From a virus (taxonomy: Duplodnaviria > Caudoviricetes): a stretch of DNA of 40,765 nt. The notes under the pieces are model-generated. The model was not told the origin of the DNA and searched no databases. It saw only the letters and a list, made by a program, of their open reading frames with translations. Positions 11,436-38,797 of the stretch are shown here, piece by piece. Where the stretch lies: the IMG/VR virus record IMGVR_UViG_3300014208_000073, positions 1-40,765 of that record, one strand, 5' to 3'. Within the stretch, counting starts at the first letter, position 1. Every line of letters starts with the position of its first letter. The position numbers and the translations under genes are program-made.

Positions 11436-11464
11436 TTGACAAACCCAAAACAACCCACTAACCT
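11436..11464 (+). promoter_or_regulatory. Sigma70 promoter of C4-like cassette 1
   Basis: TTGACA-17 bp-TAACCT; same position as the promoter of cassette 2. Confidence 0.75.
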
Positions 11465-11471
11465 TACATTG

Positions 11472-11558
11472 CTCCCGCAAAAAACGGGAGACGGGTTTTG
11501 CAGCCCGAATGGTTCTGGCGCAGCAGCTATGCGCCTATAAAGGTTCATGGCTTTTTTT
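11472..11558 (+). promoter_or_regulatory. C4 target leader (b1/a1) with terminator/antiterminator, cassette 1
   Basis: TTTGCAG 11497-11503 in a hairpin loop; GGTTCTGG 11511-11518; hairpin AGCTATG...CATGGCT plus T tract 11525-11558. Confidence 0.7.
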
Positions 11559-11572
11559 ATGCCCCTCGTTTT

Positions 11573-11651
11573 ATGGTGGGTGGCGTATTGGGGAGCCGCG
11601 AGGCTCGCCGGTCCAGAACCCGGTCTGCAAACCCGATACGTCATCCACCGC
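11573..11651 (+). ncRNA. C4-like antisense RNA, copy 1
   Basis: 18-bp closing stem GGTGGGTGGCGTATTGGG/CCCGATACGTCATCCACC; GAGCC-GCGA-GGCTC GNRA hairpin; CCAGAAC and CTGCAAA are complementary to upstream and downstream target pairs. Confidence 0.85.
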
Positions 11652-11705
11652 CCAGAGTTTTGCAGCTCCGTCCGGTGGTAATTAACCTCAGTTCTGGAGT
11701 CACTC

Positions 11706-11849
11706 ATGAATAAGTTTTTATCTTGGTTATTGGTCGTCGTGCCGACACACCACAAAATCCCCGTCCGTCTGTTTCAAATTCGTTACCAACGCGCTAAGCG
11801 AGTTCTTCACGCCCAGCTGTCGCCCAATGCCTTCACTCGGGAGGTGTAA
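11706..11849 (+). CDS. 47-aa protein in the icd/kil position of cassette 1 (not in ORF track)
   Basis: MNKFLSWLLVVVPTHHKIPVRLFQIRYQRAKRVLHAQLSPNAFTREV; its GGAG RBS overlaps target GTTCTGG; paralog at 38657. Confidence 0.75.
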   Translation: MNKFLSWLLVVVPTHHKIPVRLFQIRYQRAKRVLHAQLSPNAFTREV

Positions 11850-11850
11850 C

Positions 11851-12027
11851 ATGGATGATCGCCTGATGAAACTGGAACGCACCATCCACGCTTTGGACGG
11901 TATGAACCACGGTATTTCTTCCGCCGTGGAAACCGAAAGCGGCATTACGCCAATGCAAATTTACTGCATGATTGAGTTGGTTAGCGGAGCGCTATCTGAA
12001 TGTTTGGCTGAGCTGGGAGAAAATTAA
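11851..12027 (+). CDS. Small hypothetical protein, paralog of 40149-40298
   Basis: GGAGGT RBS; IHAL.G...GIS..VE...ITP.QIYC shared with the paralog. Confidence 0.7.
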   Translation: MDDRLMKLERTIHALDGMNHGISSAVETESGITPMQIYCMIELVSGALSECLAELGEN

Positions 12028-12393
12028 ATGGCGAGAACAATAACAGAACAAACAGGCTATAAACGCCAAATGCCACAAAGCATTTGTTCAGATATTGATG
12101 TGCTTAAGCGTATTACGGAATATAGCTACGACACAAGCAATAGAGATTTTTTGAAATACTTCGAGAGCAGAACGGGGCATTACATAGGTGCAGACCCAGC
12201 ACACCCGCAAATAATCAGTCGGATTAAGCGCGGACTCATGGAGCCATTGCCGTCAAATTATTTTGAAACTCAATGCGAGATAGCCAATATGAGTAATGAT
12301 GAATATTCCAAAAAATACAATAGCAGTGCAGACATAAACATGATTTTCAAGGGGAGATTGCAGGATTGCTGGGAATTGTTTACCGGCCTCTAA
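12028..12393 (+). CDS. Hypothetical protein
   Basis: GGAG RBS; abuts the upstream stop. Confidence 0.6.
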   Translation: MARTITEQTGYKRQMPQSICSDIDVLKRITEYSYDTSNRDFLKYFESRTGHYIGADPAHPQIISRIKRGLMEPLPSNYFETQCEIANMSNDEYSKKYNSSADINMIFKGRLQDCWELFTGL

Positions 12394-12423
12394 CACAGCT
12401 CCGTAGGGTGCGAATTATACGGA

Positions 12424-12678
12424 CTAAGCAAACAAATCCCCCTGCAACAACTCCCGGCGCTGCTCTTTCGGCAAGTGCCTAAGCAAATTAGCCGCCAGCT
12501 GCTGGGTGTCGTTGACGGGGGGATTCAGGTAGTTTTTAAAGGCTAGCGACACCACAAACGTGCAGCCGCAGTCTTTGACGTTGCTGCATTGGCAGTAAAG
12601 ATCGCGGATAGTGAGGGTGATTGCGTTCGACGAACCAATACGGGCTTTGCTTTGACAATTAGGGCATTGAATCAGCAC
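12424..12678 (-). CDS. ogr: Ogr/Delta-like zinc-finger late activator
   Basis: CPNC...LYCQCSN...CGCTFV; GAGGAG RBS before GTG at 12678. Confidence 0.9.
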   Translation of the reverse strand: MLIQCPNCQSKARIGSSNAITLTIRDLYCQCSNVKDCGCTFVVSLAFKNYLNPPVNDTQQLAANLLRHLPKEQRRELLQGDLFA

Positions 12679-12786
12679 GCAAAATCTCCTCAAATTTTTG
12701 CAATATTATACATATAAAATAACCGTTTAGCGCATAATTGCAAATAATGTGTATAAGATCACCTGACGGCTAATCCGTCGGCAGCT

Positions 12787-13824
12787 CTACGGCGCAGGCA
12801 ACCTCTTCTTCCAGTCCGGTTCTCTAAACGCCACAGGATTCCCTTTTATCTGCTCGTTAATCGTCAAAAACACCTGCTGCATCGCCATCACCTCTAGCTC
12901 GTGGTAAACCTCCATCGATTTTTGCAAATCGCCAAAGCCACCGATATTGGCCGGCATGACCGCCACCAAGCCGGGATAAACCCGGTGCATGGCCAGCATG
13001 TCCATTTCGGCAATCTCCTTGATCGCCTGGAATTCGTCCTTGCTGCCGATGTTGCCGACCGGGATGATTTGTACTGGTTCTTTGTTGCTACTGCGAGGAA
13101 TGTTCAGGTACAAACTGCGGAAGTTACCCGGCCCTTTCGACTGCATAACCTGGTTTTTGACCTCTTTGGCAGTATCTTCGTCCAGATTGGCGTCGGTCGT
13201 GACCAGGATATAACCCATGTGCGCCCCGTTGACGTAGTATTTGCGCCGAAATAGCGTTGCATCCTCGCTGAGCAGCACCGATTGAATGCCGCCGAAATAT
13301 TGCGGCACGCCGTACACGCTTTGCTTAATGTCGTGCTCTTTGATGTGCAGCACTTCGCCGGGCTGGAACTCGACCTTGCTGCCGTCGCTGTTCAGTTTAA
13401 AAAATACATCAGCCTTTTTACCGGCCCGCATGGCGATGGCAGGCAATCTAGCCAGGCGCAGCACGTTGCCGAAACGGTCGGTGAATTTCTGGAAATAGGC
13501 GTTGGACAGCACCGAATAATCCAGCGCCGCTTTGGTCAGCTCATTTGTGGACAGTAATTCGGATGGGATAAACCATTTGGCGGTCATGTTCTTTTTAAAG
13601 TGCAGGATCGGCCCGTGGTAGGCATTGGCATTCATCAAACCGGCCAACCCGGCTAAATCGACCGGCGGCCGGTAATAATCGCCGCTAAGATCCAAAAACG
13701 TGCCCAGGTACTCGGTCATGCGGTTGCTTAGCGCCGGTTCCGGATCGCCGAAGGCAAAAACAAGCGGTTTGCTGGTGTTGTCTGTCAGCGGTTGCTCAGT
13801 CATCTGTTGTTGTCCTATTGTCAT
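12787..13824 (-). CDS. Portal protein (P2 gpQ/PBSX family)
   Basis: FAFGDPE, YGVPQY, ATLFRRKYY.NGAHMG, KG.GNFRSL, GGFGD; alternative start 13803. Confidence 0.95.
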   Translation of the reverse strand: MTIGQQQMTEQPLTDNTSKPLVFAFGDPEPALSNRMTEYLGTFLDLSGDYYRPPVDLAGLAGLMNANAYHGPILHFKKNMTAKWFIPSELLSTNELTKAALDYSVLSNAYFQKFTDRFGNVLRLARLPAIAMRAGKKADVFFKLNSDGSKVEFQPGEVLHIKEHDIKQSVYGVPQYFGGIQSVLLSEDATLFRRKYYVNGAHMGYILVTTDANLDEDTAKEVKNQVMQSKGPGNFRSLYLNIPRSSNKEPVQIIPVGNIGSKDEFQAIKEIAEMDMLAMHRVYPGLVAVMPANIGGFGDLQKSMEVYHELEVMAMQQVFLTINEQIKGNPVAFREPDWKKRLPAP

Positions 13825-15641
13825 TGACTAAATGTCGCAGTCGTTTTCCGACCGTCGTTGTTTATCGGTTCGTAAATCAGCGCGTGCATGATCGCCCAGG
13901 CAATGTCGGCGTGGCCGGATTCGACGCTTCTGCTGCTGGCGTAGGTAATCAGGCCGCTGCCGGTGGTGGTTTTGGTAATCATCAAAAACGCCCGGGTGAT
14001 TTCATGGTCGCCGGCCTTGTACTTAAACCGGCCGTTCTCGACAACATCCAGCGCTTTCACAACCAGCCTGGTTTTCATTTCCATGCTGTAGTGGATCGGC
14101 GTCGCCAGCGGATACCAATCCTGGACATTTTCAAAAACACCGTAGCCGATTCCGGTGGTATCGATGCCGATGTGCTGCACGTTATGCGCCTCGCGCACGT
14201 CCTTGATGCGGTTGCTCTGGTACTGAAAATTCTGGCCGTGATAACTGTCGGTGCGCAATACACGCCACGCCTCGCCCGGAATGATCGGAATGCCCAGCGC
14301 CGCCAGACTCGCGTTATCGCGGGTACGGCTCGGGTCATAGCCCAACGACACTGGCTTATTGCCGAACGGCCGAGCGTTGTCAGGCTTGTAATCCGGCCAT
14401 TGATCCACGTCAACGGTGCAGGCCAGCAATTTCGACAGATTAAACACCGACTGGCTATCGTCGATAAACTTGCACATGAACAAGTTATTGAAATCGTCAT
14501 CGCTGTACTCGTCCTGCAGCTCATCGATGTCGAACAGATCGCAGCCTTGTTCTTCCGCGTCTTTCACCGTGACCATGTGCCGCCACTTCTTATCCGGGCC
14601 AACCCAGCCGTTTTTCAAATTCTTATGGCTGATGTCGAACTCGACCTTGTTATTGTCGGCACGGCGCTGGTTGTACATCTCGCCGGACCATTCCGAATAA
14701 GCCTCGTGACTGATCGCCGACGGCGTCGAAAACTTGGTAATGCGCCATTTCTTGTGCGCCGCCATGCCGCTGGCCACTTTGTTGAGCTTTTTGTAATTGG
14801 GTATCCAGAACACCTCGTCAATGTACAAATGCCCGTGGTACGACTGCGCCGTGTTGCTGTTGGTCGATAAAAAGCGCAGCTCGGCGCCGTTGGACAGGAT
14901 AATCACGCCCTGCCCTTTCAGCTCGACATCGAAATACTTTTGCGCAAAGGCGATGATATAGGCCTTGAACACTTCGGCCTGGTCGCGCGATGCCGACAGG
15001 AAAATGCAGTTATCACCGGTGCGCACCGCCCGATCGAACGCTTCAAAAGCAAAATAAAAGGTCGCCCCGATCTGCCTTGATTTCAGGATCAGCCTGATCC
15101 GGTCGTCGCGGTGCTCATACCAAAGCTGCTGGTACTCGAAAAACAGCTCTTCGCGGACCTTGTTCAGCATTTCCGGCGTAATGCCGGAGATGTCGTTTTT
15201 GGCTTTCTTCTCGCGCTTTTTGCCTTTTCCCTGGCGTGGCCTGTCCTGGTCGCTGCCGTGATCCGGTTCCCGGTAATTCGCTTCGCCCGGGATGCCGCCG
15301 TATATCGGCAGGCCTTTTTCGATCGCCGCGGCTTCGGCTTTGATCTTGATCGCCACCGCATGATCCTTCTGCATCTTGCCGAAAGTCTCGACCAGGCGGA
15401 TGAACTCGTTCAGCTCGGCATCGGTTTTGTTATCCCGTTCAGCCAGAATGTTAATGCGCCGAGACAGCGCGATTTCAACCGTATCCGGCGGACAAAAACT
15501 GTCCCAATCCTCATTTTTTTGCCAGTTGTACAGCGTGCGCTCGTTCACGCCGGTTTCGCGCTCGATTTCGGTCACGGTGTAGCCGCGCACAAAGAGCTGC
15601 TTTGCCGTCTGTTTCAACTCCTCCGAATAACGCCTCGCCAT
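13821..15641 (-). CDS. Terminase ATPase subunit (P2 gpP-like)
   Basis: N-terminal HTH; LKSRQIGAT, YIDE, FSTPS, GYDPS, HADIAWA. Confidence 0.95.
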   Translation of the reverse strand: MARRYSEELKQTAKQLFVRGYTVTEIERETGVNERTLYNWQKNEDWDSFCPPDTVEIALSRRINILAERDNKTDAELNEFIRLVETFGKMQKDHAVAIKIKAEAAAIEKGLPIYGGIPGEANYREPDHGSDQDRPRQGKGKKREKKAKNDISGITPEMLNKVREELFFEYQQLWYEHRDDRIRLILKSRQIGATFYFAFEAFDRAVRTGDNCIFLSASRDQAEVFKAYIIAFAQKYFDVELKGQGVIILSNGAELRFLSTNSNTAQSYHGHLYIDEVFWIPNYKKLNKVASGMAAHKKWRITKFSTPSAISHEAYSEWSGEMYNQRRADNNKVEFDISHKNLKNGWVGPDKKWRHMVTVKDAEEQGCDLFDIDELQDEYSDDDFNNLFMCKFIDDSQSVFNLSKLLACTVDVDQWPDYKPDNARPFGNKPVSLGYDPSRTRDNASLAALGIPIIPGEAWRVLRTDSYHGQNFQYQSNRIKDVREAHNVQHIGIDTTGIGYGVFENVQDWYPLATPIHYSMEMKTRLVVKALDVVENGRFKYKAGDHEITRAFLMITKTTTGSGLITYASSRSVESGHADIAWAIMHALIYEPINNDGRKTTATFSQ

Positions 15642-15668
15642 AATGTCCCTTATTAAAGATTTACGTCG

Positions 15669-15786
15669 ATTTTAAGGGGATTCAAGGCAGTTAAGCAGCG
15701 TATTTAATCCTTAAAATTCCTATATTTAGCGGTTAGGAATGCACAGGAACAATGCCCGTTGTTTTACGCCAAAAAAAAGGTAATCT
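15669..15786. promoter_or_regulatory. Divergent late promoter region with central palindrome
   Basis: ATTCCTA-N11-TAGGAAT (15716-15740) lies midway between -10-like TAAAAT (minus strand, 15674-15669) and TAATCT (15781-15786). Confidence 0.55.
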
Positions 15787-15818
15787 GAGCGCCAACAACA
15801 CAGTTTTTCGAGTGAATC

Positions 15819-16691
15819 ATGTCATTACAAACTGAATACTTACGAATTGGCCGTAGCGGTCCAACGACAGACGGAAGAATCATCCAAGAGGAATGGATCG
15901 ACCAAGCGGCTGCCTCATACGACCCGAAAAATAAATATTCCGCAAAAATCTGGCCCGACCATAACCGCTATGTGAATTACGGCAAGGTTTTGGGTGTTCG
16001 GGCAGAAAAAAACGAGGAAGGCGGAAAAGACTTGTACGCAATATTGGAGCCGAACGCGTTTTATCAGTCCGATGTGCGCTATGGGCAAAAAGTTCATTTC
16101 AGTATGGAAATAACCCCGGATTTCGCCAAGACAGGTAAGGCCTATTTAACCGGCTTGGGTGCAACTGATGACCCGGCAAGCTTAGCCACCAGCGAAATGA
16201 AGTTCAGCAAATACGCCGAGCAAGCCGGTGTTTTTCGAGCCGACTTTATGGCGTCAGAAACAAAAACTTTCGACGACCCAGCTCAAACCGGTCTGCTTGA
16301 CCAGATCAAAGCCCTTTTCAAAAACCAACCCAACGAGGACTCAGACATGGCAGACAAAGCCGCATTGGAAAAACTAAGCGCGGAAATGGCGGCGCTCAAG
16401 GAACTGTTCGCCAAAGCATTCCCTTCCACCGACAGCCATAAAACGGACGAAACGCCAGACGACCTGCCAACGCAATTCGCCGCGCTGAAACAAAGCCAGG
16501 AAGAGCTGCTGCAAAAATTCAACGCAACACAAAAACCGACCGATGAAAAGCCGGATGCGGACGTGCTGAAAACGTTGCAGGAGCAATTCAGCGCGTTGGA
16601 AACAAAGCTTGCCGATGCACTGAAGGAACAACCAGGCACCGACGGCGGCGAGCATTTTAATGCTGGCGACGACCATAGCAATTACCTGTAA
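15819..16691 (+). CDS. Capsid scaffolding protein (P2 gpO-like)
   Basis: G.TTDGR.I, FSMEI.PDFA.TGKAYLTGLGATD.PASL. Confidence 0.93.
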   Translation: MSLQTEYLRIGRSGPTTDGRIIQEEWIDQAAASYDPKNKYSAKIWPDHNRYVNYGKVLGVRAEKNEEGGKDLYAILEPNAFYQSDVRYGQKVHFSMEITPDFAKTGKAYLTGLGATDDPASLATSEMKFSKYAEQAGVFRADFMASETKTFDDPAQTGLLDQIKALFKNQPNEDSDMADKAALEKLSAEMAALKELFAKAFPSTDSHKTDETPDDLPTQFAALKQSQEELLQKFNATQKPTDEKPDADVLKTLQEQFSALETKLADALKEQPGTDGGEHFNAGDDHSNYL

Positions 16692-16746
16692 GGACAGCCC
16701 AGCAAACCTGCGGCAGAATTTTTTTTAATATTCCAAGGACATCAAC

Positions 16747-17778
16747 ATGGGACACGTACTGAGCGCGCAAGGCCAACGAGCACTTGAGCAACAATTCAAA
16801 CACACCGCGTTGGCTTATGGCGTTGCCGTCGGTAATGCGATGGCTGGACAGCATTTCACCGCTACGCCATCGGTGGCGCAAACCATCATTAAAAAGATCG
16901 TCGAAAGCGCCAATCCGTTCCTGGCCTCGTTGCCAAGCATTCCGGTCTCTGAAATCACAGGTCAAAAAGTGTTGCTGGGCTTATCCGGCCGCGTTGCTCG
17001 CCGTACCGATACCGCAGGCTCCGGAGAACGGACGCCCAATCGATTAGTCAGCACAGGCACGCAAGACTACGCCCTGAAACCGACCGAATTCGACATCGCC
17101 TTAAGCTATGCCGATATTGATTCCTGGGCCAAATTCCCCAACTTTGCCGATCTGTACATGCAAGCGGTACGCGAAGCGATCGCCAACGACATTTTACAGG
17201 CCGGCTGGACCGGTACCACTGCGGCAACAGCCACCAATATCGTCACCAGTCCACTGCTGGAAGATCTGGCTATCGGCTGGCTGCAAAAAATCCGCGCCTA
17301 TAACGGCGGCAGCCAATACGCAATCGGCACCGTGGGCGTGCCTATTTCAATCGGCGCAACCGGCACTTACAAAAACCTGGACGAAGCCGTTCACGACATC
17401 AAGCAGACCGTTGCCGCTCGGTTTAGAAAGCGCGGCGATTTGGTCGCGTTGATCTCTGACGACCTGATGGTTTCTGCCGAAGACGCTTATTACCAAACCC
17501 ACGGCAACACCCCGACCGAAAAAGCCCTGCTGGGCGGCAGCATCACCAAAGCTTTCGGCGGCGTGCCATCGGTAACGCCACCGTTCTACCCGGACAAAAC
17601 CGTCCTGATCACGCCGCTGAAAAATCTGGCCACGTACTACCAGGACAGCAGCGTCCGCCGCTTGCAACGCGACTGGCCGAGCAAGGATGAAGTACAGGAA
17701 TTCAATTCCCTGAACATGGGCTATGTGGTGCAGGAAGAAGAAGCCACCGCCCTGGTTGAAAACATCACTCTGGTTTAA
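16747..17778 (+). CDS. Major capsid protein (P2 gpN-like)
   Basis: F.ATPSV.Q, ID.WAKF, PLLED...GWLQK.R, LITPLKNL. Confidence 0.95.
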   Translation: MGHVLSAQGQRALEQQFKHTALAYGVAVGNAMAGQHFTATPSVAQTIIKKIVESANPFLASLPSIPVSEITGQKVLLGLSGRVARRTDTAGSGERTPNRLVSTGTQDYALKPTEFDIALSYADIDSWAKFPNFADLYMQAVREAIANDILQAGWTGTTAATATNIVTSPLLEDLAIGWLQKIRAYNGGSQYAIGTVGVPISIGATGTYKNLDEAVHDIKQTVAARFRKRGDLVALISDDLMVSAEDAYYQTHGNTPTEKALLGGSITKAFGGVPSVTPPFYPDKTVLITPLKNLATYYQDSSVRRLQRDWPSKDEVQEFNSLNMGYVVQEEEATALVENITLV

Positions 17779-17783
17779 TCGTT

Positions 17784-18530
17784 ATGAGAAAACTCGCGCA
17801 GATCAAAGCCCAGCAAATAGCTGATGCCGAAAAAGCCGGCGCTCCGCATCCCTACGTGGGTGTCGATTTAGCATCAGGAGCGGACATCACCATATACCCC
17901 GCCGATGAAGCGGCCTCGGCAGCCGCAGCGGCACCGCGCGACCTGGAGCATTACCAGGCCGCGATGGGCGCCGACTTGGCAAAGCTATCGACTCTTAAAG
18001 ACGTGGTCGAAAAAGCCAAGGCTAAAGCCGCCATGCTGGCTACCTATTTGGAGTTCGTTAAGTCGTATGTCACCAACGGCGACAACTACCCGAACGATAT
18101 TGCCGTTCGGGTGTGCATCTGGCTGTTCGACATTCTTGACATCGAGCACGCGTTGAATCTGGCCTTTGTGCTGATCAAGCAAAACCAGATCACGCCGCCG
18201 AAATTCGACCGCGACCTGCCGACCTTTGTTTGCGATGCGACATACGATTGGGCCGCTGCGCTGTTGAAACTGGACCCGCCGCAATCGGCCAGCCCATATC
18301 TGGATACGGTCGTCGCTACTATGGATAACGACCAGTGGTCATTGTCTCCGCCGGTGCAATCGAAAATGTACGCACTACTCGCCAAGCATAAAAAGCGCGA
18401 AGGCGATTGGCAGGCCTGCTTGGCGCTGTGCGAAAAAGCCGAGGCGGTTAATCCGGAAGGTGCTGGCGTCAAGGGCATGAAAACCGAAGCGGCGGCGAAG
18501 TTACAACAAAACTTGGAGCAATCCGAATAA
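17784..18530 (+). CDS. Terminase endonuclease/small subunit (P2 gpM-like)
   Basis: Position after capsid; IWLFD, P.KF.RDLP.FV.D, GVK motifs. Confidence 0.85.
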   Translation: MRKLAQIKAQQIADAEKAGAPHPYVGVDLASGADITIYPADEAASAAAAAPRDLEHYQAAMGADLAKLSTLKDVVEKAKAKAAMLATYLEFVKSYVTNGDNYPNDIAVRVCIWLFDILDIEHALNLAFVLIKQNQITPPKFDRDLPTFVCDATYDWAAALLKLDPPQSASPYLDTVVATMDNDQWSLSPPVQSKMYALLAKHKKREGDWQACLALCEKAEAVNPEGAGVKGMKTEAAAKLQQNLEQSE

Positions 18531-18637
18531 CGATCTCCTCAAGCCCAGTGCGGACGAGTGATCACAAGAATGCTGACGCACTGATTGTGGGATCTGGTTC
18601 GGGCTGGCACTAATTAACTACATTTTCGGAGTAAGAC

Positions 18638-18880
18638 ATGAAAAAAGTCATCTTAGCATTTGCAGTATTGCTGTTGATAGTCGGCTGCTCAACACCTGAG
18701 TTGGACGACGGCTATCAGTTTGGCGACGTAACCCGCATTGCCATCCGAGAAGAAAAAGACATTAAGCAGGCCATTAATGATTACTGCGACAAAGCCGAAG
18801 ACTCAGCCATCAGGCAGGCGGCATTAGCGGTTATCCGGACGAAATACCCGTTTGTGCCAGAAAACGGAATCTGCGGCTAA
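18638..18880 (+). CDS. Small lipoprotein
   Basis: MKK + hydrophobic core + LIVG-C lipobox; GGAG RBS. Confidence 0.75.
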   Translation: MKKVILAFAVLLLIVGCSTPELDDGYQFGDVTRIAIREEKDIKQAINDYCDKAEDSAIRQAALAVIRTKYPFVPENGICG

Positions 18881-30132: not shown

Positions 30133-30134
30133 CT

Positions 30135-30668: not shown

Positions 30669-31387
30669 TGACCTGGACACCATTAACCATCACAGCACCT
30701 GCCGGCACTGCCGCCGAGATTGACAGCCAATCCGGCGGCAGTGTCCAAAAGCGCATTGTGCATCCGTGGCTGCACGGCGTCGGCGAGGGTTCCGGGCATT
30801 ACCGCTACCTGAGCTTTCCCAATGCCGCCCAAGCCCTGGCGCAGACCCTGACCACCGAGCAGGCAGCGCTGGGCATTGCCATTGCGGCGGCCAACCTGAC
30901 CGATTTTGCCAATGACATCGCCACATTAAATGCTGTGTTCCCGGTGCGCGAGTTTGCAGCGCTGGGCCGCAAGGCGGCGGCGCTGGTTAACCTGGAAACC
31001 GATAAATTCAATCTACCTGCGGCGCCAGGTGCGATCGCGCAGCAAGCGATGGATCTGTCCGGTCTGGGCGCTGTGGCCGATTTGCGAAAAGCGGCGCTGC
31101 TGCAACAGGCTCAGACGGAGGCGACGGCATTCGAGCAATCCGGGCCGCTGGCCAATCTGGATGCCTACCAAACGCAAAAGACTGCTGCAGCTGCGGATGT
31201 TGCGGCGGCGCTGGCGTCGGCAAAGGCCAAGCTGTCCGGCGGCGCCGGCTGGCGCTTTTATGCCGAGAGCGACATTGCTAATGCGCTGATGCAAAACACG
31301 CCGGACCACAAATATACGCTGACGGCGATTATGCTGTTTACCGGTGCGCCTGGTGAGCTGTCCTTGCTTAAAGAGATAATCGCGTGA
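30668..31387 (+). CDS. Conserved HP1-type tail-region protein
   Basis: VHPW..GVG...YLS.PNA motif; position. Confidence 0.7.
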   Translation: MTWTPLTITAPAGTAAEIDSQSGGSVQKRIVHPWLHGVGEGSGHYRYLSFPNAAQALAQTLTTEQAALGIAIAAANLTDFANDIATLNAVFPVREFAALGRKAAALVNLETDKFNLPAAPGAIAQQAMDLSGLGAVADLRKAALLQQAQTEATAFEQSGPLANLDAYQTQKTAAAADVAAALASAKAKLSGGAGWRFYAESDIANALMQNTPDHKYTLTAIMLFTGAPGELSLLKEIIA

Positions 31388-31935
31388 GCATTCATCTAAA
31401 CAACACCAAGATCCCTGGTCATAGCCAAAAGGTTTCAATCGATTTAAAGTTCGCCAGCGAGGATATGTCCGGCAACAGCAGTTCTACCGCCAAAGCGCAC
31501 AAGGGCGACAAAGGCAAAACTATCAAGGTGCAGACCTCGATCAAGTTTATCGATGCTGACGATTTAAGCCTTCTGATCAATCTGGCCGAGGCTAAGGACG
31601 CATCCGGTGAACAGGTGATTTACCACATCGTTAACCACACCGCCAACGCCATGAATATGCGCCAGGGTTTTTTCGACGAAACGCTGTCGGTCAAGGAAAA
31701 CGACTCAACCGAGGGCTGGAGCATCAGTTTTACGCTGTCCGAACATCATTCGGTGCCGGAAAAGAAAGAGGCCAGGAAAGCGGAAAAGAAAGTCGCTGAA
31801 CAGGTGCCGAAAGGCACCGCGGTAAACGGGCAAGCGCCCGGGGCGACGGCCCCGGCGGCGGTGACCGATCAGGCGGTCGAGCTGACGCCGTTTGAGCAAA
31901 AGCTGAAAGGCCTGGACACGTTGTTGGGCGGCTGA
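31384..31935 (+). CDS. HP1-type baseplate complex protein
   Basis: DMSG.SSST..A.KG.K, W.ISFTL.E..SVPEK. Confidence 0.75.
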   Translation: MSIHLNNTKIPGHSQKVSIDLKFASEDMSGNSSSTAKAHKGDKGKTIKVQTSIKFIDADDLSLLINLAEAKDASGEQVIYHIVNHTANAMNMRQGFFDETLSVKENDSTEGWSISFTLSEHHSVPEKKEARKAEKKVAEQVPKGTAVNGQAPGATAPAAVTDQAVELTPFEQKLKGLDTLLGG

Positions 31936-32630
31936 TGAAACTGGACCGGCAACTCAACATCAATAACACCACTTACCACGTCATCGAGAACAGGGTGCTG
32001 CTGGATCTCGACTCGCCCGGTCGGGCTCAGTTTTTGATCGATGCCAGCGACAAGCCGGTTACAGCCAAGCAGGTGGTTTCGTTTACGCTGGGTTACGCCA
32101 AGCACGACACCATGCAGCGGCTGTTTTTGGGCTTTGTCGAGTCGGTCAATACAGTGGACAAGCGGCAGAAGCTGTTTTGCCGGGAGCTGTCGGCGGCGCT
32201 GTTCGCGCCGCTACGGCTGGATTTACGCCACGTAACCATGCACGAGGTCATCACCGAGATCAACATTAAAACAGGACTGACCTTTGCAGTCGGCGACGGT
32301 GCTTACAGCAGCAAAAAGGTGGCGAATTTTTATAACCTGGGCAACGGCTATCAGGCCATGCAGTCCATGGCCCGGGTGTTCGGTATTACCGATTACATTT
32401 GGCAGCAGCAGGGCCACGGAGTGATTTACGCCGGCAGCTGGCGGGATTCGCGCTATGCGGACAAGCCTATCCCGGTTGATTCTACGCTGTTTACCGAGCA
32501 CCTATCCAACAACAGCGCCAAGCTGGTGGCGATACCGGCTCTACGACCTGGCGTGATGATGAACGGCAATATTGTGACGAAAGTGGATTTTAGCGGCAAC
32601 CAAATGGTGGTGACATGGAAAAAGCCATAA
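31935..32630 (+). CDS. Baseplate hub-like protein
   Basis: PGRA.F, LFCREL, WQQQG.G.IY.GSW. Confidence 0.75.
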   Translation: MKLDRQLNINNTTYHVIENRVLLDLDSPGRAQFLIDASDKPVTAKQVVSFTLGYAKHDTMQRLFLGFVESVNTVDKRQKLFCRELSAALFAPLRLDLRHVTMHEVITEINIKTGLTFAVGDGAYSSKKVANFYNLGNGYQAMQSMARVFGITDYIWQQQGHGVIYAGSWRDSRYADKPIPVDSTLFTEHLSNNSAKLVAIPALRPGVMMNGNIVTKVDFSGNQMVVTWKKP

Positions 32631-33505
32631 AACGCATGATTCAATCATCCTTTCCGGAACTGGCCGGCGGCTATCACCTGCCCCGTTTTGCCGAGGTGGT
32701 CGCCGCACGCGAAAACCCAAAAGGCGGCGAGGTGTGCGACGAGTTCCGGCCGGTTTATGCCGTGGACGCGCAGGTGCTGGATGAATACGGCGAACCGGAT
32801 GCGGCTTTCCCTGTGTTAAAAGACCTGCATTTGCCGATGCCGGTTTCCGGGCATGAAATGGGCATGGCGGCGTTTCCGGAGAACGGAACTTGGGTGGAGA
32901 TCGGCTTTGCCTATGGTTCGCCCAATAGACCGTTTATCCGCTGCATATTGCCGCATGGCCGCAGCCAGTTTCCGGTCGAGCGCGGTGAAATGCGCCTGCA
33001 GCATTCCGCCGGCAGTTACCAGACCATCGACAAAAACGGCAACCATGCCCGGGTGACTGACGGCACGATGTCCGATACCAGCCTGAAAAAGACCAGTACC
33101 GCGACCGAGCGCAGCGCCAATTACGGCAAAAGCGATAAGACCGTGGACGCGGGCGACACCGAAACCATCGGCGGCATTAAAAAGATACTGGCCAGCATGG
33201 GCATGCAACTGACCAGCGGCCAACGCTTCGACCTGTCGGCGCTGGGCGATTTTAATATCGTCAGCAAGGTGAAGTTCAGGTCGATTGCGCCTAAAAGCTG
33301 GGTGGGGTCGAGCAATGAAAATGTGCTGAAACAATTATCCGAGCTGATGCAGCTGGTGATTAACCTGTGCGACATCCTGTCCAGCCATACCCATCCATCA
33401 GTCGGAGCTTGCAGCCAGGGGGCGCAGGTTTCGCAGGTTGGCACGGATACCGGTGCGGTCAAGACACGGCTGGACGGGATTACCGAAACAACGCCGCCGA
33501 CATAA
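32615..33505 (+). CDS. Baseplate spike-like protein
   Basis: FPELAGG.HLP, VEIGFAYG, C-terminal SHTH metal-binding tip motif. Confidence 0.75.
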   Translation: MEKAIKRMIQSSFPELAGGYHLPRFAEVVAARENPKGGEVCDEFRPVYAVDAQVLDEYGEPDAAFPVLKDLHLPMPVSGHEMGMAAFPENGTWVEIGFAYGSPNRPFIRCILPHGRSQFPVERGEMRLQHSAGSYQTIDKNGNHARVTDGTMSDTSLKKTSTATERSANYGKSDKTVDAGDTETIGGIKKILASMGMQLTSGQRFDLSALGDFNIVSKVKFRSIAPKSWVGSSNENVLKQLSELMQLVINLCDILSSHTHPSVGACSQGAQVSQVGTDTGAVKTRLDGITETTPPT

Positions 33506-33516
33506 AAACAGAACCA

Positions 33517-33560
33517 CGTCATTCCGGCATGGATTGCCGGAATCCAGTGGCCATGGATGG
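33517..33560 (+). repeat. CGTC-family REP-like palindrome
   Basis: CGTCATTCCGGCA-TGGAT-TGCCGGAATCCAG. Confidence 0.7.
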
Positions 33561-33581
33561 TATAACCAACAAGGGGCAATC

Positions 33582-33758
33582 ATGGACGAAATCCGCTGCG
33601 GAGCCTGCGGCAAAAAGCTGGGCGCCGGTATTTATCAAACTTTACAAATAAAATGCCCGCGCTGTAGCGTGCTTAATTTTTTGAGGGCCGAGAGCCCCAA
33701 ACCCGAACACCGCGAGTGTCATTGCAAGCGTGATACTCGTGAGAATCTACAAAAATAA
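33582..33758 (+). CDS. com: Mu Com-family zinc-finger translational regulator
   Basis: IRCG.C.KKL...IKCPRC...N signature; overlaps the MTase start. Confidence 0.85.
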   Translation: MDEIRCGACGKKLGAGIYQTLQIKCPRCSVLNFLRAESPKPEHRECHCKRDTRENLQK

Positions 33759-34662
33759 AAACCTAACCCTGCATAACACCGACTGCTTAACCCTGTTGGC
33801 GCAACTCCCCGACAACAGCATCGACCTGATCGCCACCGATCCGCCCTATTACAAAGTCAAAGGCGAAGCGTGGGACAACCAATGGCAAAGCAAAGCCGAC
33901 TTTTTCGCCTGGCTGGATAGCATTCTGGTTGAATATCACCGGGTTTTAAAACCGGCCGGATCGTTATACCTGTTTGCCGGTCCCCATCTGGCAACACAAG
34001 TGGATATTGCCGTCAGTCGGCGCTTTGATCTCCTGAATCACATCATCTGGCGCAAGCCAAGCGGCAGGCATAACGGTTGCAATAAGGAATCGCTACGCCG
34101 CTACTTTCCGCAGACCGAACACATCCTATTTGCCGAAAGCCGCAAAAAAATGCCGTTCGCCTTTGAACCGATCCGCGCTTACCTGGACGATGCCAGAACC
34201 GCCGCCGGCGTTTCAAGAAAGCAAATCGACCAGGCCTGCGGCTGCCAAATGTCCGGTCACTGGTTCGACCGATCACAATGGACATTCCCCAGCCAGGCTA
34301 ATTATCAAACGATGGATAAGTTGTTCGGAGGTACGTTGAAGCCTTACGACCAACTGAAAGCGGAATACAAAGCCATCAAACAACAGCGCCGCCATTTTGC
34401 AGTGACAAAGCACACTCCCTACACCAACGTCTGGGACTTTAAGCCGGCGCAATGGTATCCGGGTAAGCATCCCTGCGAAAAGCCGCTGGATCTGATGCGG
34501 CATATCATCGAGGCCAGTTCACGCCCGGGTGATGTGGTGCTGGATACCTTTGTCGGCAGCGGATCGACGCCGATTGCCTGCAGGGATCTGGGGCGGGGGT
34601 TTGTGGGGTGCGAGATGGGGGTTGATGAGTTTGATGGTGCGGTTGGGAGGTTAACAGCTTAA
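33730..34662 (+). CDS. Beta-class N6A/N4C DNA methyltransferase
   Basis: IDLIATDPPY before HPCEKP and DTFVGSG; GTG start at 33730 or 33739. Confidence 0.93.
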   Translation: MILVRIYKNKNLTLHNTDCLTLLAQLPDNSIDLIATDPPYYKVKGEAWDNQWQSKADFFAWLDSILVEYHRVLKPAGSLYLFAGPHLATQVDIAVSRRFDLLNHIIWRKPSGRHNGCNKESLRRYFPQTEHILFAESRKKMPFAFEPIRAYLDDARTAAGVSRKQIDQACGCQMSGHWFDRSQWTFPSQANYQTMDKLFGGTLKPYDQLKAEYKAIKQQRRHFAVTKHTPYTNVWDFKPAQWYPGKHPCEKPLDLMRHIIEASSRPGDVVLDTFVGSGSTPIACRDLGRGFVGCEMGVDEFDGAVGRLTA

Positions 34663-34699
34663 CTAAATGTGTTTATTGAAATAGACACCTAAACAGTGT

Positions 34700-35173
34700 C
34701 TATTTCTTGTTGTGCCACAAGGCATGGCGGGTATGTCGTACCGCTTGCGCAACCATCCAGCGCCAGCCAGGCAGCGACAAATCTAATTCTACTTTTGACA
34801 GCATACATTCCACCGTCCTGTCGCCATCTTGCAGTTCTATAATTAAGCGTTCGCGCTGTTTGTCAAACCACCAGTACGGTTTTCTATTCCCATGCCATCT
34901 TGCATCCACCCAGCGCCAGAATACAAACCTGTCTTCTGGGTATTCATAGCGCCACAACGAATCATTCAACATCGCTCGTTCCTTGCTCGGACGAGCTGCG
35001 CGGGACGGCATCGCAGGGTTAGCCGCCTTTGCATTTTGATCGGTTGATAGTTTTTCTGGTTCCCATGTCCATGACGCATTATCACCAGGAATGCGCGAAT
35101 GATGCTTATGCCTCCATGTCGCACCACAATGTGGGCACGCAAGTCCGATTTTAATCATATCAAATGTGTTCAT
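34700..35173 (-). CDS. Hypothetical protein (Trp-rich C-terminal half)
   Basis: ORF track; an internal start at 34972 with AAGGA RBS is possible. Confidence 0.5.
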   Translation of the reverse strand: MNTFDMIKIGLACPHCGATWRHKHHSRIPGDNASWTWEPEKLSTDQNAKAANPAMPSRAARPSKERAMLNDSLWRYEYPEDRFVFWRWVDARWHGNRKPYWWFDKQRERLIIELQDGDRTVECMLSKVELDLSLPGWRWMVAQAVRHTRHALWHNKK

Positions 35174-35393
35174 AACTTCTTTTGCTCGTTAGCTCTATCT
35201 GAAATCTAACATCACTGATGTCCTCGCACTCGTATACCCACCTTTGTTTAGCTGGCACAAAATGCTTTGAAACAACTATCTCATTGTCTCCGCCATGGAT
35301 AACCTGAATCAGTGTTCTTTTTCTTTTTAGTGTATCCAGCCATTTATCAGGTAAAACCATAAGGATCCTCCGCATAGGATGTAGGTCGATCAT
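35160..35393 (-). CDS. Hypothetical protein
   Basis: Co-oriented and closely spaced with neighbours. Confidence 0.5.
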   Translation of the reverse strand: MIDLHPMRRILMVLPDKWLDTLKRKRTLIQVIHGGDNEIVVSKHFVPAKQRWVYECEDISDVRFQIELTSKRSYEHI

Positions 35394-35419
35394 GTTGTTT
35401 ATAGCAGATATACCAAAAC

Positions 35420-35650
35420 TTATTTGCTGTTATCAAACTGACGCCAGTAAGGACGTTTGTTTACCACAACCTTTGTATTCGGTTGTCCTAGGCGGTCATA
35501 TACAGATTGAAAAGCTTTAGATAATTGCTCACAGGAAGCGCTCATTTTTCCGCATGCCTGATGCAGTTGGCGCACTGTCTCTTGGTCGATATTTAACCTG
35601 GCATTCTGTAGTTTTTCTGCTGCTTGTTGGATTTGCTGATTCCGATCCAT
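35420..35650 (-). CDS. Hypothetical protein
   Basis: Directly downstream of hicB; likely ATG at 35650. Confidence 0.5.
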   Translation of the reverse strand: MDRNQQIQQAAEKLQNARLNIDQETVRQLHQACGKMSASCEQLSKAFQSVYDRLGQPNTKVVVNKRPYWRQFDNSK

Positions 35651-35670
35651 AGTCTTACCCCATACTGGCA

Positions 35671-36084
35671 CTACGCCAGCGTTACATCAATATGCTTACC
35701 CAGCGCGTGCGCCGCAGCTTCCAATTGATCAAGCCTGGATGCGTGTCCCAGATCAAACAACCGATCGACCTGCGGCCCTTTCCAGCCCAAACGCCGTGCC
35801 AGTTCTGCCTTCCTGACACCCTGCAGCGTCATTTCCCGATAAACAGCCAGCTTTATGCCCTCCAGCGCGGAAGGCCTGACCGTGGGCAAATCAGGACAGT
35901 CTGACGGTTCTGGTAAAGGTTTTCTGGCGTCGACATAAAACGACAAAGCGGTTTCCAGTGCATCAACAGCCTGGGCCAATGCTTCTTCTTCGTTGTTGCC
36001 AAAGGTGATGGCTTCCGGCACGTCGGGAAACGTGACCAGTAGGGTGTCGCCATCCTGGGTTAAGACGACGGGATAATTAAACAT
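35671..36084 (-). CDS. hicB: HicB antitoxin
   Basis: YPV.L...LVTFPDVPEAITFG...EAL..A.DAL, C-terminal HTH. Confidence 0.93.
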   Translation of the reverse strand: MFNYPVVLTQDGDTLLVTFPDVPEAITFGNNEEEALAQAVDALETALSFYVDARKPLPEPSDCPDLPTVRPSALEGIKLAVYREMTLQGVRKAELARRLGWKGPQVDRLFDLGHASRLDQLEAAAHALGKHIDVTLA

Positions 36085-36093
36085 GATTGCTCC

Positions 36094-36273
36094 TTATTTC
36101 AAACCTAGTTGACGTTTAATGGCGGCTTCCAAGCCTTTACCGAGTTCGGCGGTTCCGTGCATGGGCAATGTAGACTGTTTTCCGTTTAAAAACACTTTCA
36201 AATGCGAACCTTTGCCTTCTTGAAAGGTTGCTCCTTGTTGTTCCAGCCATTTTTTCATTTGCTTTGAGTTCAT
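36094..36273 (-). CDS. hicA: HicA toxin (59 aa, not in ORF track)
   Basis: MNSKQMKKWLEQQGATFQEGKGSHLKVFLNGKQSTLPMHGTAELGKGLEAAIKRQLGLK; GSH motif. Confidence 0.93.
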   Translation of the reverse strand: MNSKQMKKWLEQQGATFQEGKGSHLKVFLNGKQSTLPMHGTAELGKGLEAAIKRQLGLK

Positions 36274-36282
36274 GGCTAAATA

Positions 36283-36330
36283 ATAACACTTCTGTTGTGT
36301 TTTTCAAGAAAAAGACAACAGATGTGTTAT
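36283..36330. promoter_or_regulatory. Inverted repeat upstream of hicA, putative HicB operator
   Basis: ATAACACTTCTGTTGT / ACAACAGATGTGTTAT, 15 of 16 bp complementary and extending inward. Confidence 0.65.
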
Positions 36331-36596
36331 GTTTTTATAAATGAAAGCCAATGTTCTTCACTAATAATCACTGGTTCAATGCCTCTTTCGCGAAGGTTTT
36401 TAATTGCGTTTTCGTATGTCCCATTAACCCCATGATCTATATTAACGACAATGTAATCAGTCTTACCATTTGGTATTGCCTGAATAATACCACCATGTTT
36501 TTCAACTTTTTCCTTACTCTCATCTATATTGCCAGAATTGAAATAACCGCCTAAAGCAAAGCGTTTATTTTCAAAAATAACATCAGGCGGCGGCAT
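36327..36596 (-). CDS. BRCT-domain protein, possibly 5'-truncated
   Basis: FENKRF.L.G.F...VEKHGG.I.....KTDYIVV...IISEEHW. Confidence 0.75.
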   Translation of the reverse strand: MPPPDVIFENKRFALGGYFNSGNIDESKEKVEKHGGIIQAIPNGKTDYIVVNIDHGVNGTYENAIKNLRERGIEPVIISEEHWLSFIKT

Positions 36597-36721
36597 GGTT
36601 AAACTTAGCCATGTTTTATTTGCTTCATCTAATTTATTTTTACGTTTAATTCCTACCTTCCAGCTATGGCCAGAACATCGAAATTAGTGTAATATTAAGC
36701 CCAAAAATAGGGACTATTTAT

Positions 36722-37582
36722 ATGGCACACACACCTTCACCACTTCGTTACCCAGGCGGTAAAACATCTATCTGGCCGCTGATTTCAAAGATAATTTCAG
36801 ACAATGAGTTATCACGTGGACATTACTGCGAGCCGTATGCTGGCGGTTGTGGCCTAGCATTGACGTTATTGTTTAAAGGATTCGTTCACGAGCTACACTT
36901 AAACGATATTGATCGCTCTATTTGGTGTTTTTGGGATGCAATCCTCAACAGGACAGAAGATTTTATTGAAAAAATAGTGACAACTGAGGTCACTATTAAT
37001 GAATGGTATAAACAACGCGAGATTCAGGCAAATAAAGATAATGCCCGAGATTTTGACCTTGCTTTCTCATCATTCTTCTTAAATAGAACAAACAGATCAG
37101 GAGTCATTCTGAAAGCGGGAGTTATTGGTGGATTCTCTCAAGATGGTAAATACAAACTCGACTGTAGATTTAACAAACAAGGGTTAATAGATCGAATACG
37201 CAGGATTGAAAAATATAAACACCGAATACACCTATACAACCTAGACGCCATTGAATTCATACACAAAACTAACGCTACTTTGACTGGAAACAATGTTTAT
37301 TGCATTGACCCGCCGTACTTTGTTAAAGGTTCAACACTATATACCAATTTCTACGAACCCAAAGACCATCAACAGATAGCTGACGTATTAAACAACTTAG
37401 ATTGCCCTTGGCTTCTTACTTATGATAACTCACCTTCGATACAGCACTTATATCAAGAAAGGAGGCAACATAGATTTAACTTGAATTATAGTGCTGCACA
37501 CAAACGAATTGGCACTGAATTATTGATTGTCAGCGATGATATTATATTTTCCAGCTCTCTTAATATCATGCCCGCAGCTTAG
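36722..37582 (+). CDS. Dam/D12-class N6-adenine DNA methyltransferase
   Basis: SPLRYPGGK, EPYAGG, LNDID, FLNRTNRSG, IDPPY; AT-rich. Confidence 0.93.
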   Translation: MAHTPSPLRYPGGKTSIWPLISKIISDNELSRGHYCEPYAGGCGLALTLLFKGFVHELHLNDIDRSIWCFWDAILNRTEDFIEKIVTTEVTINEWYKQREIQANKDNARDFDLAFSSFFLNRTNRSGVILKAGVIGGFSQDGKYKLDCRFNKQGLIDRIRRIEKYKHRIHLYNLDAIEFIHKTNATLTGNNVYCIDPPYFVKGSTLYTNFYEPKDHQQIADVLNNLDCPWLLTYDNSPSIQHLYQERRQHRFNLNYSAAHKRIGTELLIVSDDIIFSSSLNIMPAA

Positions 37583-37661
37583 TTAAAAATTTAATAACGC
37601 GAGAACAAAAAGGCAGTCATAAAGGAATGATGTATCTGAAAATCTAGAGCACTAAAGTTAA

Positions 37662-38369
37662 TTAGTCAGAATAAGGTGTGACTGCTACATAATACCGTTT
37701 AATTCTGAAGTCTTCATTGCCTAATTCTTCTTTAGATTTTTTTGTTCCTTGTAGCTTATTCCGCCATTCCATCGGCGTTGTGACTTCGCCGGTTTCAATA
37801 TCGATCAACTCAAAACCATGAATACGGCTAAAATAAAAAGTTCTAATCTCTTTTCGCAAATGACAATAACCTTTGAATTTATCGCCTATTTTTCCTGTTA
37901 TAACATCAACTGTTCTTTCAGTAATATTGCCATCAAAATCGCGATATTTAAATTGCACTGTCCCGTATATGTCCTTTTCTTTAGGTTCATGTTTAACCTT
38001 AAATAGAGATTTCACATTATTTATTTTGCTAGGTTGATATTCAGGTAATTTAAAATCGTTTAGTCGCGGCCCATTCCAGGAAAACCAGCTACCTTGCTCT
38101 TTAGCAAATTTATTAGCGCGGCTAAAACAAAAATATATAAACCATCCAACAACATAAACTATCAATATCCCCTCTGCGCCAGGCTTACCGTCGTGACTTT
38201 TAAAAATAACGTCGACAATAGCTACAGGTATAATTACAACCTCAAAAAAGCCCCGGAAAAATCCAATAAATTTGCGAAAAAAACCTTTATTTTCTGGAAC
38301 AAATTTACGGCGCAACAAATAAGCGACCACCATCAAAAAAATAAATGTAAATGCCTCGGTATTGCTCAC
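37662..38369 (-). CDS. Membrane protein with C-terminal WYL-like domain
   Basis: About three hydrophobic segments, then FKYRD.DG.ITER.V...GYCHLR.E.RTF..SRI; AGGAGG RBS before GTG at 38369. Confidence 0.8.
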   Translation of the reverse strand: MSNTEAFTFIFLMVVAYLLRRKFVPENKGFFRKFIGFFRGFFEVVIIPVAIVDVIFKSHDGKPGAEGILIVYVVGWFIYFCFSRANKFAKEQGSWFSWNGPRLNDFKLPEYQPSKINNVKSLFKVKHEPKEKDIYGTVQFKYRDFDGNITERTVDVITGKIGDKFKGYCHLRKEIRTFYFSRIHGFELIDIETGEVTTPMEWRNKLQGTKKSKEELGNEDFRIKRYYVAVTPYSD

Positions 38370-38383
38370 ATCAACCTCCTCAG

Positions 38384-38412
38384 TTGACAAATTAAAAAAA
38401 TACAACTAATCT
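38384..38412 (+). promoter_or_regulatory. Sigma70 promoter of C4-like cassette 2
   Basis: TTGACA-17 bp-TAATCT. Confidence 0.75.
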
Positions 38413-38419
38413 AATCACG

Positions 38420-38505
38420 CTCTCGCAAAAAACGAGAGTCGGGGTTAGTAGCCCGATCAAGCAAAGGCGCTGTAGCTATGCGCCGCCCGGTTCATGGCTT
38501 TTTTT
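38420..38505 (+). promoter_or_regulatory. C4 target leader (b1/a1) with terminator/antiterminator, cassette 2
   Basis: TTAGTAG 38445-38451; GCAAAGG 38461-38467; hairpin plus T tract 38474-38505. Confidence 0.7.
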
Positions 38506-38522
38506 ATGCCCTCACATTTATT

Positions 38523-38604
38523 ATGGTGGGTGGTGTATTGGGGAGCCGCGAGGCTCGCCGGGTCCTTTGCCCCGGTCTACTAACCCGATACATCATCCAC
38601 CACC
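38523..38604 (+). ncRNA. C4-like antisense RNA, copy 2
   Basis: Same scaffold as copy 1 with a compensatory C-G to T-A stem change; recognition elements CCTTTGC (38564-38570) and CTACTAA (38577-38583). Confidence 0.85.
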
Positions 38605-38656
38605 ATGAGTTTAGTAGCTCCGGTCGGTGGTTTAAACCACAGTAAAGGAGTCACCC

Positions 38657-38797
38657 ATGAACACGCTTTTAACCTGGCTACAGTCCGTAGCACCACAACA
38701 CAAAATCCCCGTCCGTCTGTTCCAAATCCGCTATCAACGCGCTAAACGAGTGTGTCGCGCCCTGCTGTTACCCCCTGCTTTAACTCGGGAGGTGTAA
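38657..38797 (+). CDS. 46-aa protein in the icd/kil position of cassette 2 (not in ORF track)
   Basis: MNTLLTWLQSVAPQHKIPVRLFQIRYQRAKRVCRALLLPPALTREV; AAGGAG RBS overlaps target GTAAAGG. Confidence 0.75.
   Translation: MNTLLTWLQSVAPQHKIPVRLFQIRYQRAKRVCRALLLPPALTREV

Follow-up and report, generated by a model that had tools for sequence, protein, structure and literature searches.

Can a single temperate phage carry two C4-type antisense RNA locks, each reading only its own targets, and would such a pair call for a special explanation? The question is raised by a 40,765-nucleotide (nt) stretch of Caudoviricetes DNA (IMG/VR record IMGVR_UViG_3300014208_000073, positions 1 to 40,765; the whole stretch is called the window below), which contains two related cassettes, copy 1 (11436-11849) and copy 2 (38384-38797), with 78% column identity over the region compared. 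Each encodes a C4-like RNA that displays two recognition heptamers, a' and b' (its keys), facing an upstream pair of sites in the leader (a1, b1) and a downstream pair (a2, b2). The dual lock is real and well supported. Its type is already known, and what is new is the host and the phage group rather than the mechanism. We consider it probable that, in the lysogen, each of the two C4-family RNAs silences its own operon and not the other, with keys matching only their own four sites.

Two C4 RNAs and their heptamer keys

The window was searched with cmscan against Rfam, in which the gathering cut-offs are 45 bits for C4 (RF01695), 50 bits for isrK and 46.7 bits for c4-a1b1 (RF03163). Both RNAs matched positions 1-87 of the 87 of the C4 model, above its cut-off (Table 1), which confirmed the P1/P7 C4 layout assigned in the original prediction. 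The predicted folds have the three C4 stems with a single-stranded a' junction and b' loop, and both C4 stems start at the GGU motif that a passage of PMC5320573 names as the RNase P site. The stem-pair covariation described earlier was recovered as one pair changed on both sides (C-G / U-A), or 1 of 29 predicted pairs. The leaders matched isrK at 37.0 (leader 1) and 39.3 bits (leader 2), with E values of 3.5e-5 and 1.4e-4, below its cut-off; the c4-a1b1 match suggested for follow-up was obtained for leader 1, at 32.1 bits and thus also under the cut-off.

All 12 heptamers named in the original prediction are present with the pairing it described. Cognate pairing was Watson-Crick at 7/7 positions in seven of the eight target sites, and the eighth, at 38642, has six Watson-Crick pairs and one G-U pair; copy 1 forms 28/28 Watson-Crick pairs over its four sites. 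Two separate heptamers per RNA thus achieve pairing on both sides of each cassette, and in both copies b2 reaches into the GGAG Shine-Dalgarno sequence of the first open reading frame (ORF), as had been proposed. In a chance control, random 7-mers of the window paired at ≥6.5/7 both upstream and downstream in 57/20000 (copy 1) and 21/20000 (copy 2) cases. Each cassette begins with a predicted promoter, and a TA-N3-T hexamer stands at the same spacing from TTGACA in 20 of 28 relatives. One contig of sequencing run X1, the possible source, covers 10200-13000 and another 37400-40440, with 0 differences, and run X2, from another study, gave error-free pieces over 11280-11464, 11608-11886, 37800-38440 and 38650-38893.

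Table 1 Features of the window that bear on the two cassettes and their setting.
Feature	Position	Strand	Basis or remark
attL-like 31-nt repeat of tRNA-Ser 3' end	330..360	.	94% direct repeat with 40643-40673
Integrase	454-1467	-	PHROG and Pfam
Primase	6278-8923		
Cassette 1 predicted sigma70 promoter TTGACA-17-TAACCT	11436..11464	+	sequence; spacing kept in relatives
Cassette 1 leader (a1b1 / IsrK-like)	11471..11558	+	isrK and c4-a1b1 below cut-off; folds, with a hairpin before a1
a1 TTTGCAG, copy 1	11497-11503	+	
b1 GTTCTGG, copy 1	11512-11518	+	
Terminator-like hairpin with U7, leader 1	11525-11558	+	fold
C4 RNA 1	11569..11655	+	RF01695 61.6 bits, E 1.1e-9; fold
b' loop CCAGAAC of RNA 1	11613-11619	+	
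a' junction CTGCAAA of RNA 1	11625-11631	+	
Downstream targets of RNA 1	11659..11699	+	a2 11659-11665; b2 11691-11697, into GGAG Shine-Dalgarno
47-aa ORF in icd position	11706..11849	+	family of 17 aligned sequences
58-aa ORF directly after cassette-1 small ORF	11851..12027	+	homologue of the 49-aa ORF that normally trails Bro-N
121-aa ORF, last before ogr	12028..12393	+	no family
ogr	12424-12693	-	PF04606; convergent to cassette-1 operon
Cassette 2 predicted sigma70 promoter TTGACA-17-TAATCT	38384..38412	+	sequence; spacing kept in relatives
Cassette 2 leader	38419..38505	+	isrK below cut-off
a1 TTAGTAG, copy 2	38445-38451	+	
b1 GCAAAGG, copy 2	38461-38467	+	
Terminator-like hairpin with U7, leader 2	38474-38505	+	fold
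C4 RNA 2	38519..38607	+	RF01695 67.1 bits, E 4.6e-11
b' CCTTTGC of RNA 2	38564-38570	+	
a' CTACTAA of RNA 2	38577-38583	+	
Downstream targets of RNA 2	38611..38650	+	a2 38611-38617; b2 GTAAAGG 38642-38648 on Shine-Dalgarno
46-aa ORF in icd position	38657..38797	+	72% identical to copy-1 ORF
ATP-dependent DNA ligase between small ORF and Bro-N	38799..39584	+	PF01068, PF14743, phrog_114
Bro-N antirepressor-family gene	39581..40138	+	PF02498 E 3.7e-22; anti-repressor PHROGs; start overlaps ligase stop (ATGA)
49-aa conserved ORF, end of cassette-2 operon	40149..40298	+	conserved in relatives
tRNA-Ser(GCT), integration site (attR)	40643..40734	-	Rfam scan, repeat

Predicted orthogonality

Across the copies, a' of copy 1 forms five Watson-Crick pairs and one G-U pair with one mismatch on the copy-2 a sites, a' of copy 2 leaves two mismatches on the copy-1 a sites, and b' leaves three to four. 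Summed duplex energies, which are crude values for the isolated displayed segments without structure cost, were -16.8 to -21.6 kcal/mol for cognate pairs (RNA 1 on its own sites, -21.6 and -20.7; RNA 2, -19.4 and -16.8) vs -3.9 to -7.7 kcal/mol across copies (-6.5, -7.7, -5.6 and -3.9). The claim that the two RNAs do not cross-react is therefore likely as a prediction, and that of independent control of the two operons is supported at the same predicted level by the matching of each key to its own sites only. P1 and P7, according to a passage of PMC5320573, are only 4 nt apart in their recognition regions, yet do not cross-react.

Key diversity and dual C4 records

A general C4 pattern retrieved 120 viral loci from 10 of the 64 parts of the collection, which corresponds to an estimated ~810 overall. 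Among the 105 distinct pattern loci, which include non-C4 false hits, own keys paired at ≥6.5/7 at a1, a2, b1 and b2 in 70, 68, 82 and 84 loci, respectively, and swapped keys in 5.8%, 1.4%, 20.8% and 8.1%. Since own keys pair in 68-84 of the 105 loci vs 1-21% for swapped keys, four-site covariation is the norm for the C4 family. The keys themselves are diverse, with 79 distinct keys in 88 leaders, and unrelated C4s had both keys in common in just 1.4% of 7656 ordered pairs, so that differing keys within one phage are the default. The non-matching keys of the window, which had been presented as needing a special explanation, thus need none; they appear to differ through the hypervariability of the family, and selection for an orthogonal pair is not demonstrable from these comparisons.

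Dual C4s were surveyed in 50 of the 57 records of ≥30 kb; those left out were two that were searched separately (one of them, G001, with two C4s), four without fitting targets and one more. Two C4s over the cut-off were present in 8/50 records and in 4/36 among near-complete ones, and three more records had a weaker second match. The b keys differ in 8/8 dual records and the a keys in 7/8, and four of the eight look like one lineage. G023 and G029, with two Ogr/Delta genes each, are probably a phage plus a satellite, and G038 combines a P2 capsid and one Ogr with two C4s that have the same a' but different b'. The supposed rarity of dual cassettes was not borne out, given these 8/50 records, which include the P2-capsid G038, and a second region homologous to c4 and icd that a passage of PMC6799933 describes in the D6-like plasmid prophage pYU39_89. 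The latter differs in being a P1-like plasmid prophage of Salmonella, and recognition sequences are not analysed in that passage. A part of PMC6906374 likewise mentions icd-ant homologues at a second site in a P1-like plasmid. We found no paper on dual C4 in P2/HP1-type or Methylobacter phages, in a search that was thin for subscription literature, including the original P1/D6 work. One contig of a Methylococcaceae genome (G238:C21:13010-18987; L260 and L277) carries two C4-like matches 5.8 kb apart.

Separate changes of the a and b keys

Three relatives, G004, L196 and L197, carry a' CTGCAAA of copy 1 together with b' CCTTTGC of copy 2, each with matching targets, and 16 cassettes of the same scaffold display six a keys and eight b keys in 12 combinations. 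When the key sites were masked, copy 2 was nearest to L196 (91% identity, support 96/98), and copy 1 had no match above 82%, its identity to copy 2 being 78%. Because of the hybrids L196, L197 and G004 and the grouping of copy 2 with L196, the most fitting view of the six key changes is that the a and b keys changed separately within a diverse pool. Of the original proposal that all six elements had changed in concert, the differences themselves stand and the single event is not supported.

Prophage setting and probable host

The window is one whole HP1-like prophage of the P2 family, flanked on both sides by a repeat of 31 nt from the end of tRNA-Ser(GCT). It carries an integrase, a repressor-like gene (2143-2595), a primase, ogr, a P2-type head, an HP1-type tail and methylases. 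A P2-type capsid (PF05125, 276 bits), portal and terminase, Ogr, the HP1-type tail and a tyrosine integrase place it among the temperate P2-family (HP1-like) phages, and its best cultured capsid matches are only 40% identical (Pseudomonas phi3 group). The host is probably Methylobacter, a methane-oxidising bacterium, because Methylobacter accounts for most of the named homologues of the small ORF (one is from Methylotenera) and for four of its five genome loci; the fifth is an 11-residue match.

Much of the window aligns at 65-88% with the related phage records G004, G056 and G057, and each of the three carries, behind the region of tail genes and methylases, a cassette of C4, small ORF and Bro-N. 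The slot between primase and ogr, where cassette 1 lies, holds no C4 or sRNA-Xcc1 in G056, and the record of G057 does not extend over it. In G004 it holds an sRNA-Xcc1 (63.3 bits, cut-off 53) before a Bro-N gene (L140:7639-8523, minus strand), with a near-identical TTGACA-17 promoter and flanking complementary 7-mers seen by eye. Since the relatives keep the former cassette and differ in the primase-ogr slot, cassette 2 is the core, native immI-like lock of the lineage and cassette 1 an accessory in a variable slot. A 73-amino-acid (aa) ORF after Bro-N in the G004 slot was considered as a relative of the 58-aa ORF of cassette 1, but no relationship was detectable (E 0.37). In the cultured phage collection, the C4 segment gave only partial matches, none over the whole cassette.

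Further C4-like RNAs were seen outside the window. G004 has a divergent one (48.6 bits; L139:1234-2019, minus strand) before an antirepressor-like ORF related to window 3007-3579; no flanking targets were evident by eye, and it was not counted as a second keyed lock. A second type of C4 scaffold precedes the same small ORF and Bro-N in the Methylobacter-type loci L199, L203, L208, L211, L222 and others, so that the RNA scaffold is exchanged within the cassette family. In L187 (G012:35966-36283), a weaker C4-like RNA and an intact C4 cassette stand in tandem, the former immediately before the promoter of the latter.

Two other regions of the window are worth recording. The early operon includes a thymidylate synthase and a nucleotide-kinase-like gene (window 4609-5873), and tblastx/blastn comparison with G004 and G056 left a gap across most of this region. 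At the right end (window 33438-37582) lie a Com-like regulator before an N6/N4 methyltransferase, a HicB-like antitoxin, a lone BRCT-domain ORF and a D12-class adenine methyltransferase.

Gene content of the two operons

The order in cassette 2 is promoter, leader, C4, 46-aa ORF, ligase, Bro-N and 49-aa ORF, with junctions that are 1-base, overlapping and 10-base. In cassette 1, promoter, leader and C4 are followed by the 47-aa, 58-aa and 121-aa ORFs and then the convergent ogr. The small ORF has an invariant TREV-type tail whose codons hold a GGAGGT one base before the next start (in the 47-aa ORF, the last codons carry this ribosome site of the next gene), which suggests that it is translationally coupled to the gene behind it. 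The 47-aa ORF had no Pfam, PHROG or NCBIfam match and no usable Atlas match, and the 121-aa ORF no Pfam, PHROG or NCBIfam family and only unnamed Atlas clusters. The ligase of cassette 2 has a counterpart in L191 at 99% aa identity, and L196 has a different, 116-aa insert at this position; the junction between small ORF and Bro-N thus accepts cargo genes.

The original prediction overlooked the ligase and a contrast between the operons: an antirepressor-family gene is present downstream in cassette 2 and absent from cassette 1, in which tblastn found no Bro-N and the 58-aa ORF comes straight after the small ORF. Behind the small ORF, 33 of 35 related loci (a few of them identical to each other) carry Bro-N and the other two end within 25 bases; only cassette 1 is without it. 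These 35 were drawn from 40 fetched loci after removal of two that are the window itself, two duplicates and one spurious 11-residue match. The 58-aa ORF is 50% identical to the 49-aa ORF over 44 aa (E 8e-14) and has 17 close relatives at 72-86%. It belongs to no Pfam, PHROG or NCBIfam family, and no viral locus was found for the protein. Its alignment was matched in 5/301 Methylococcaceae genomes, only L247, L250 and L251 lying behind a Bro-N gene.

The missing Bro-N raises the possibility that cassette 1 was once an antirepressor operon and is now decaying, still locked since its leftover genes are harmful or since decay has not yet reached the RNA. Its end branch in the tree is long (0.27 vs a median of 0.071), its small ORF differs from relatives in 12-18 amino-acid-changing codons, against 4-13 among the relatives, and in L247 a close 58-aa homologue lies behind a frameshifted Bro-N gene. 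However, copy 1 retains all four of its targets, its promoter spacing, an RNA stem in which one pair is compensated, and three uninterrupted ORFs separated by 0-1 bases, and it has none of the mismatched targets that occur in several relatives (e.g. L192, L205 and L218). We therefore rate decay as improbable. Between the cassette-1 operon and the 3' end of the convergent ogr lie 30 bases (window 12028-12693), and no terminator was called on the plus strand; read-through would run antisense to this late activator gene.

Search for foreign targets

The same intact promoter and 28/28 Watson-Crick pairs, kept despite the missing Bro-N, also fit a dedicated second immunity key, with which the C4 RNA of cassette 1 would silence in trans the antirepressor operons of rival phages or satellites from another key group. 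Related cassettes display its a key, CTGCAAA, more often than any other, near b keys exist in L204 (6/7) and L255 (identical b1 site), and reach in trans is plausible in the family, since a foreign leader, L261 of a Methylococcaceae genome, is a predicted partner of RNA 2, with a near fit to key 2 (a 6.5/7, b 7/7). Key 1, however, fits both downstream sites in 0/88 distinct viral leaders, 0/25 Methylobacter-type leaders and 0/10 Methylococcaceae genome leaders (parsed from 21 loci), a result of low power, given how many keys exist (79 distinct ones in 88 leaders) and how few leaders were sampled. Key 2 fits none of the 88 viral or 25 Methylobacter-type leaders. The perfect self-targets also argue that cassette 1 still guards its own genes. 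A role in silencing foreign phages is thus unlikely, and the suggestion that the pair silences two foreign immunity groups is not supported, with no surveyed foreign leader fitting key 1. We give little weight as well to a broader proposal in which cassette 1 would be an antirepressor-free key donor against rival phages, the primase-ogr slot a swappable port for RNA locks (C4 here, sRNA-Xcc1 in G004) and the keys a combinatorial two-part a/b code in methanotroph phages.

Regulatory model

In P1, blocked icd translation causes Rho-dependent termination. By analogy with P1/P7, we propose that the TTGACA promoter of each cassette is transcribed constitutively, that the C4 RNA is likely cut from its own leader transcript to ~80 nt, with RNase P acting at the GGU start, and that two-point pairing to a2/b2 would block translation of the small ORF and hence of the coupled genes behind it. 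In a newly entered cell that lacks the matching key, expression of the operon would be transient and cease once the RNA has accumulated. Cassette 2 would guard the ligase, the Bro-N antirepressor-family gene and the 49-aa gene, and cassette 1, as a second member of the cassette pool of Methylobacter phages, only small genes without an antirepressor. The corresponding steps are described in parts of the P1/P7 literature, namely RNase P processing of C4 to ~77 nt and occlusion of the ribosome site (PMC5320573), heteroimmunity that rests on repressed antirepressor synthesis (PMC12197685) and the roles of Icd and Ant in P1 (PMC8201110).

The leaders allow a different logic, in which the terminated leader RNA would be the active regulator that refolds or titrates its own C4 segment and switches the operon on, each leader addressing only its own cassette. 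Both leaders match isrK and end in a hairpin with U7, the minimum-energy fold of precursor 1 pairs the leader with the C4 segment, and a section of PMC4825925 shows such control for Gifsy-1, in which the IsrK leader acts in trans to switch on translation and growth arrest persisted when additional downstream RNA was supplied. Yet the isrK matches are under the family cut-off, the position of b2 on the ribosome site fits repression by C4, and the scheme is compatible with our model if the leader is an off-switch for the repressor RNA. As a replacement for it, we think this logic very improbable.

Several points weigh against silencing of each operon by its own C4 RNA, or qualify it. All regulation described here is deduced from sequence and from better-known phages, and the sign of control may differ from the simple P1 case because the Gifsy-1 leader activates in trans. 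A consensus scan called neither promoter (the -10 boxes are 3/6 to consensus), and a terminator scan called neither of the bulged leader hairpins. Slight cross-talk is possible, since a' of RNA 1 has one mismatch and one G-U pair on the copy-2 a sites. Homology of the small ORF to Icd/Ash was rejected by a profile comparison with four Icd/Ash-type ORFs (probability 0.4%), a label that we take these four to carry; the small ORF is a positional analogue of Icd only. The antirepressor role of Bro-N is a family label. In-place duplication followed by divergence of the two copies is not favoured by the tree, in which 9 of 13 inner branches are weak and forcing the copies as sisters costs 15.7 log-likelihood units, but the approximately unbiased (AU) test (p 0.12) does not reject it.

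Relation to known systems

The c4 motifs were defined by Weinberg 2010 (PMC2864571). The cassettes resemble immI of P1/P7 in the C4 RNA above cut-off, the four-site layout, b2 on the ribosome site of a small first ORF, the antirepressor-family gene downstream (cassette 2) and a specificity set by few bases. They differ from it in that there are two of them, in an integrating HP1-like P2-family phage; the small ORF is not Icd by profile, Bro-N stands in place of P1 Ant, and there is a ligase insert in cassette 2 and no antirepressor in cassette 1. With isrK-orf45-anrP of Gifsy-1, as described in a section of PMC4825925, they share an IsrK-like terminated leader, a complementary processed RNA and a coupled antirepressor-like gene, but the Gifsy-1 system is a single cassette in a lambdoid phage and is described there as activation by a short leader RNA. 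The same paper summarises the P4 CI RNA with seqA/seqC, also a processed RNA that pairs with sites upstream and downstream in its own transcript; in P4, however, replication genes are controlled by termination, whereas neither cassette here is upstream of the primase. APSE phages have isrK, C4 and Bro-N in the same order, and two of them add sRNA-Xcc1 before another gene, as G004 does, although they are Podovirus-like endosymbiont phages with one C4 only in the portion of PMC7313666 and the record (LR797923.1) compared.

Discussion

C4 heteroimmunity has so far been worked out on essentially two keys, those of P1 and P7. This phage and its relatives with single a- or b-key changes form a natural set in which to weigh the specificity of each half, and the cassettes are a source of small orthogonal translational switches. 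The notable parts are the perfectly matched copy that lacks an antirepressor and the natural single-key swaps. For the P2 family, whose immunity is classically protein-only, the cassettes indicate that its phages can carry RNA-locked antirepressor operons, in probable methanotroph hosts.

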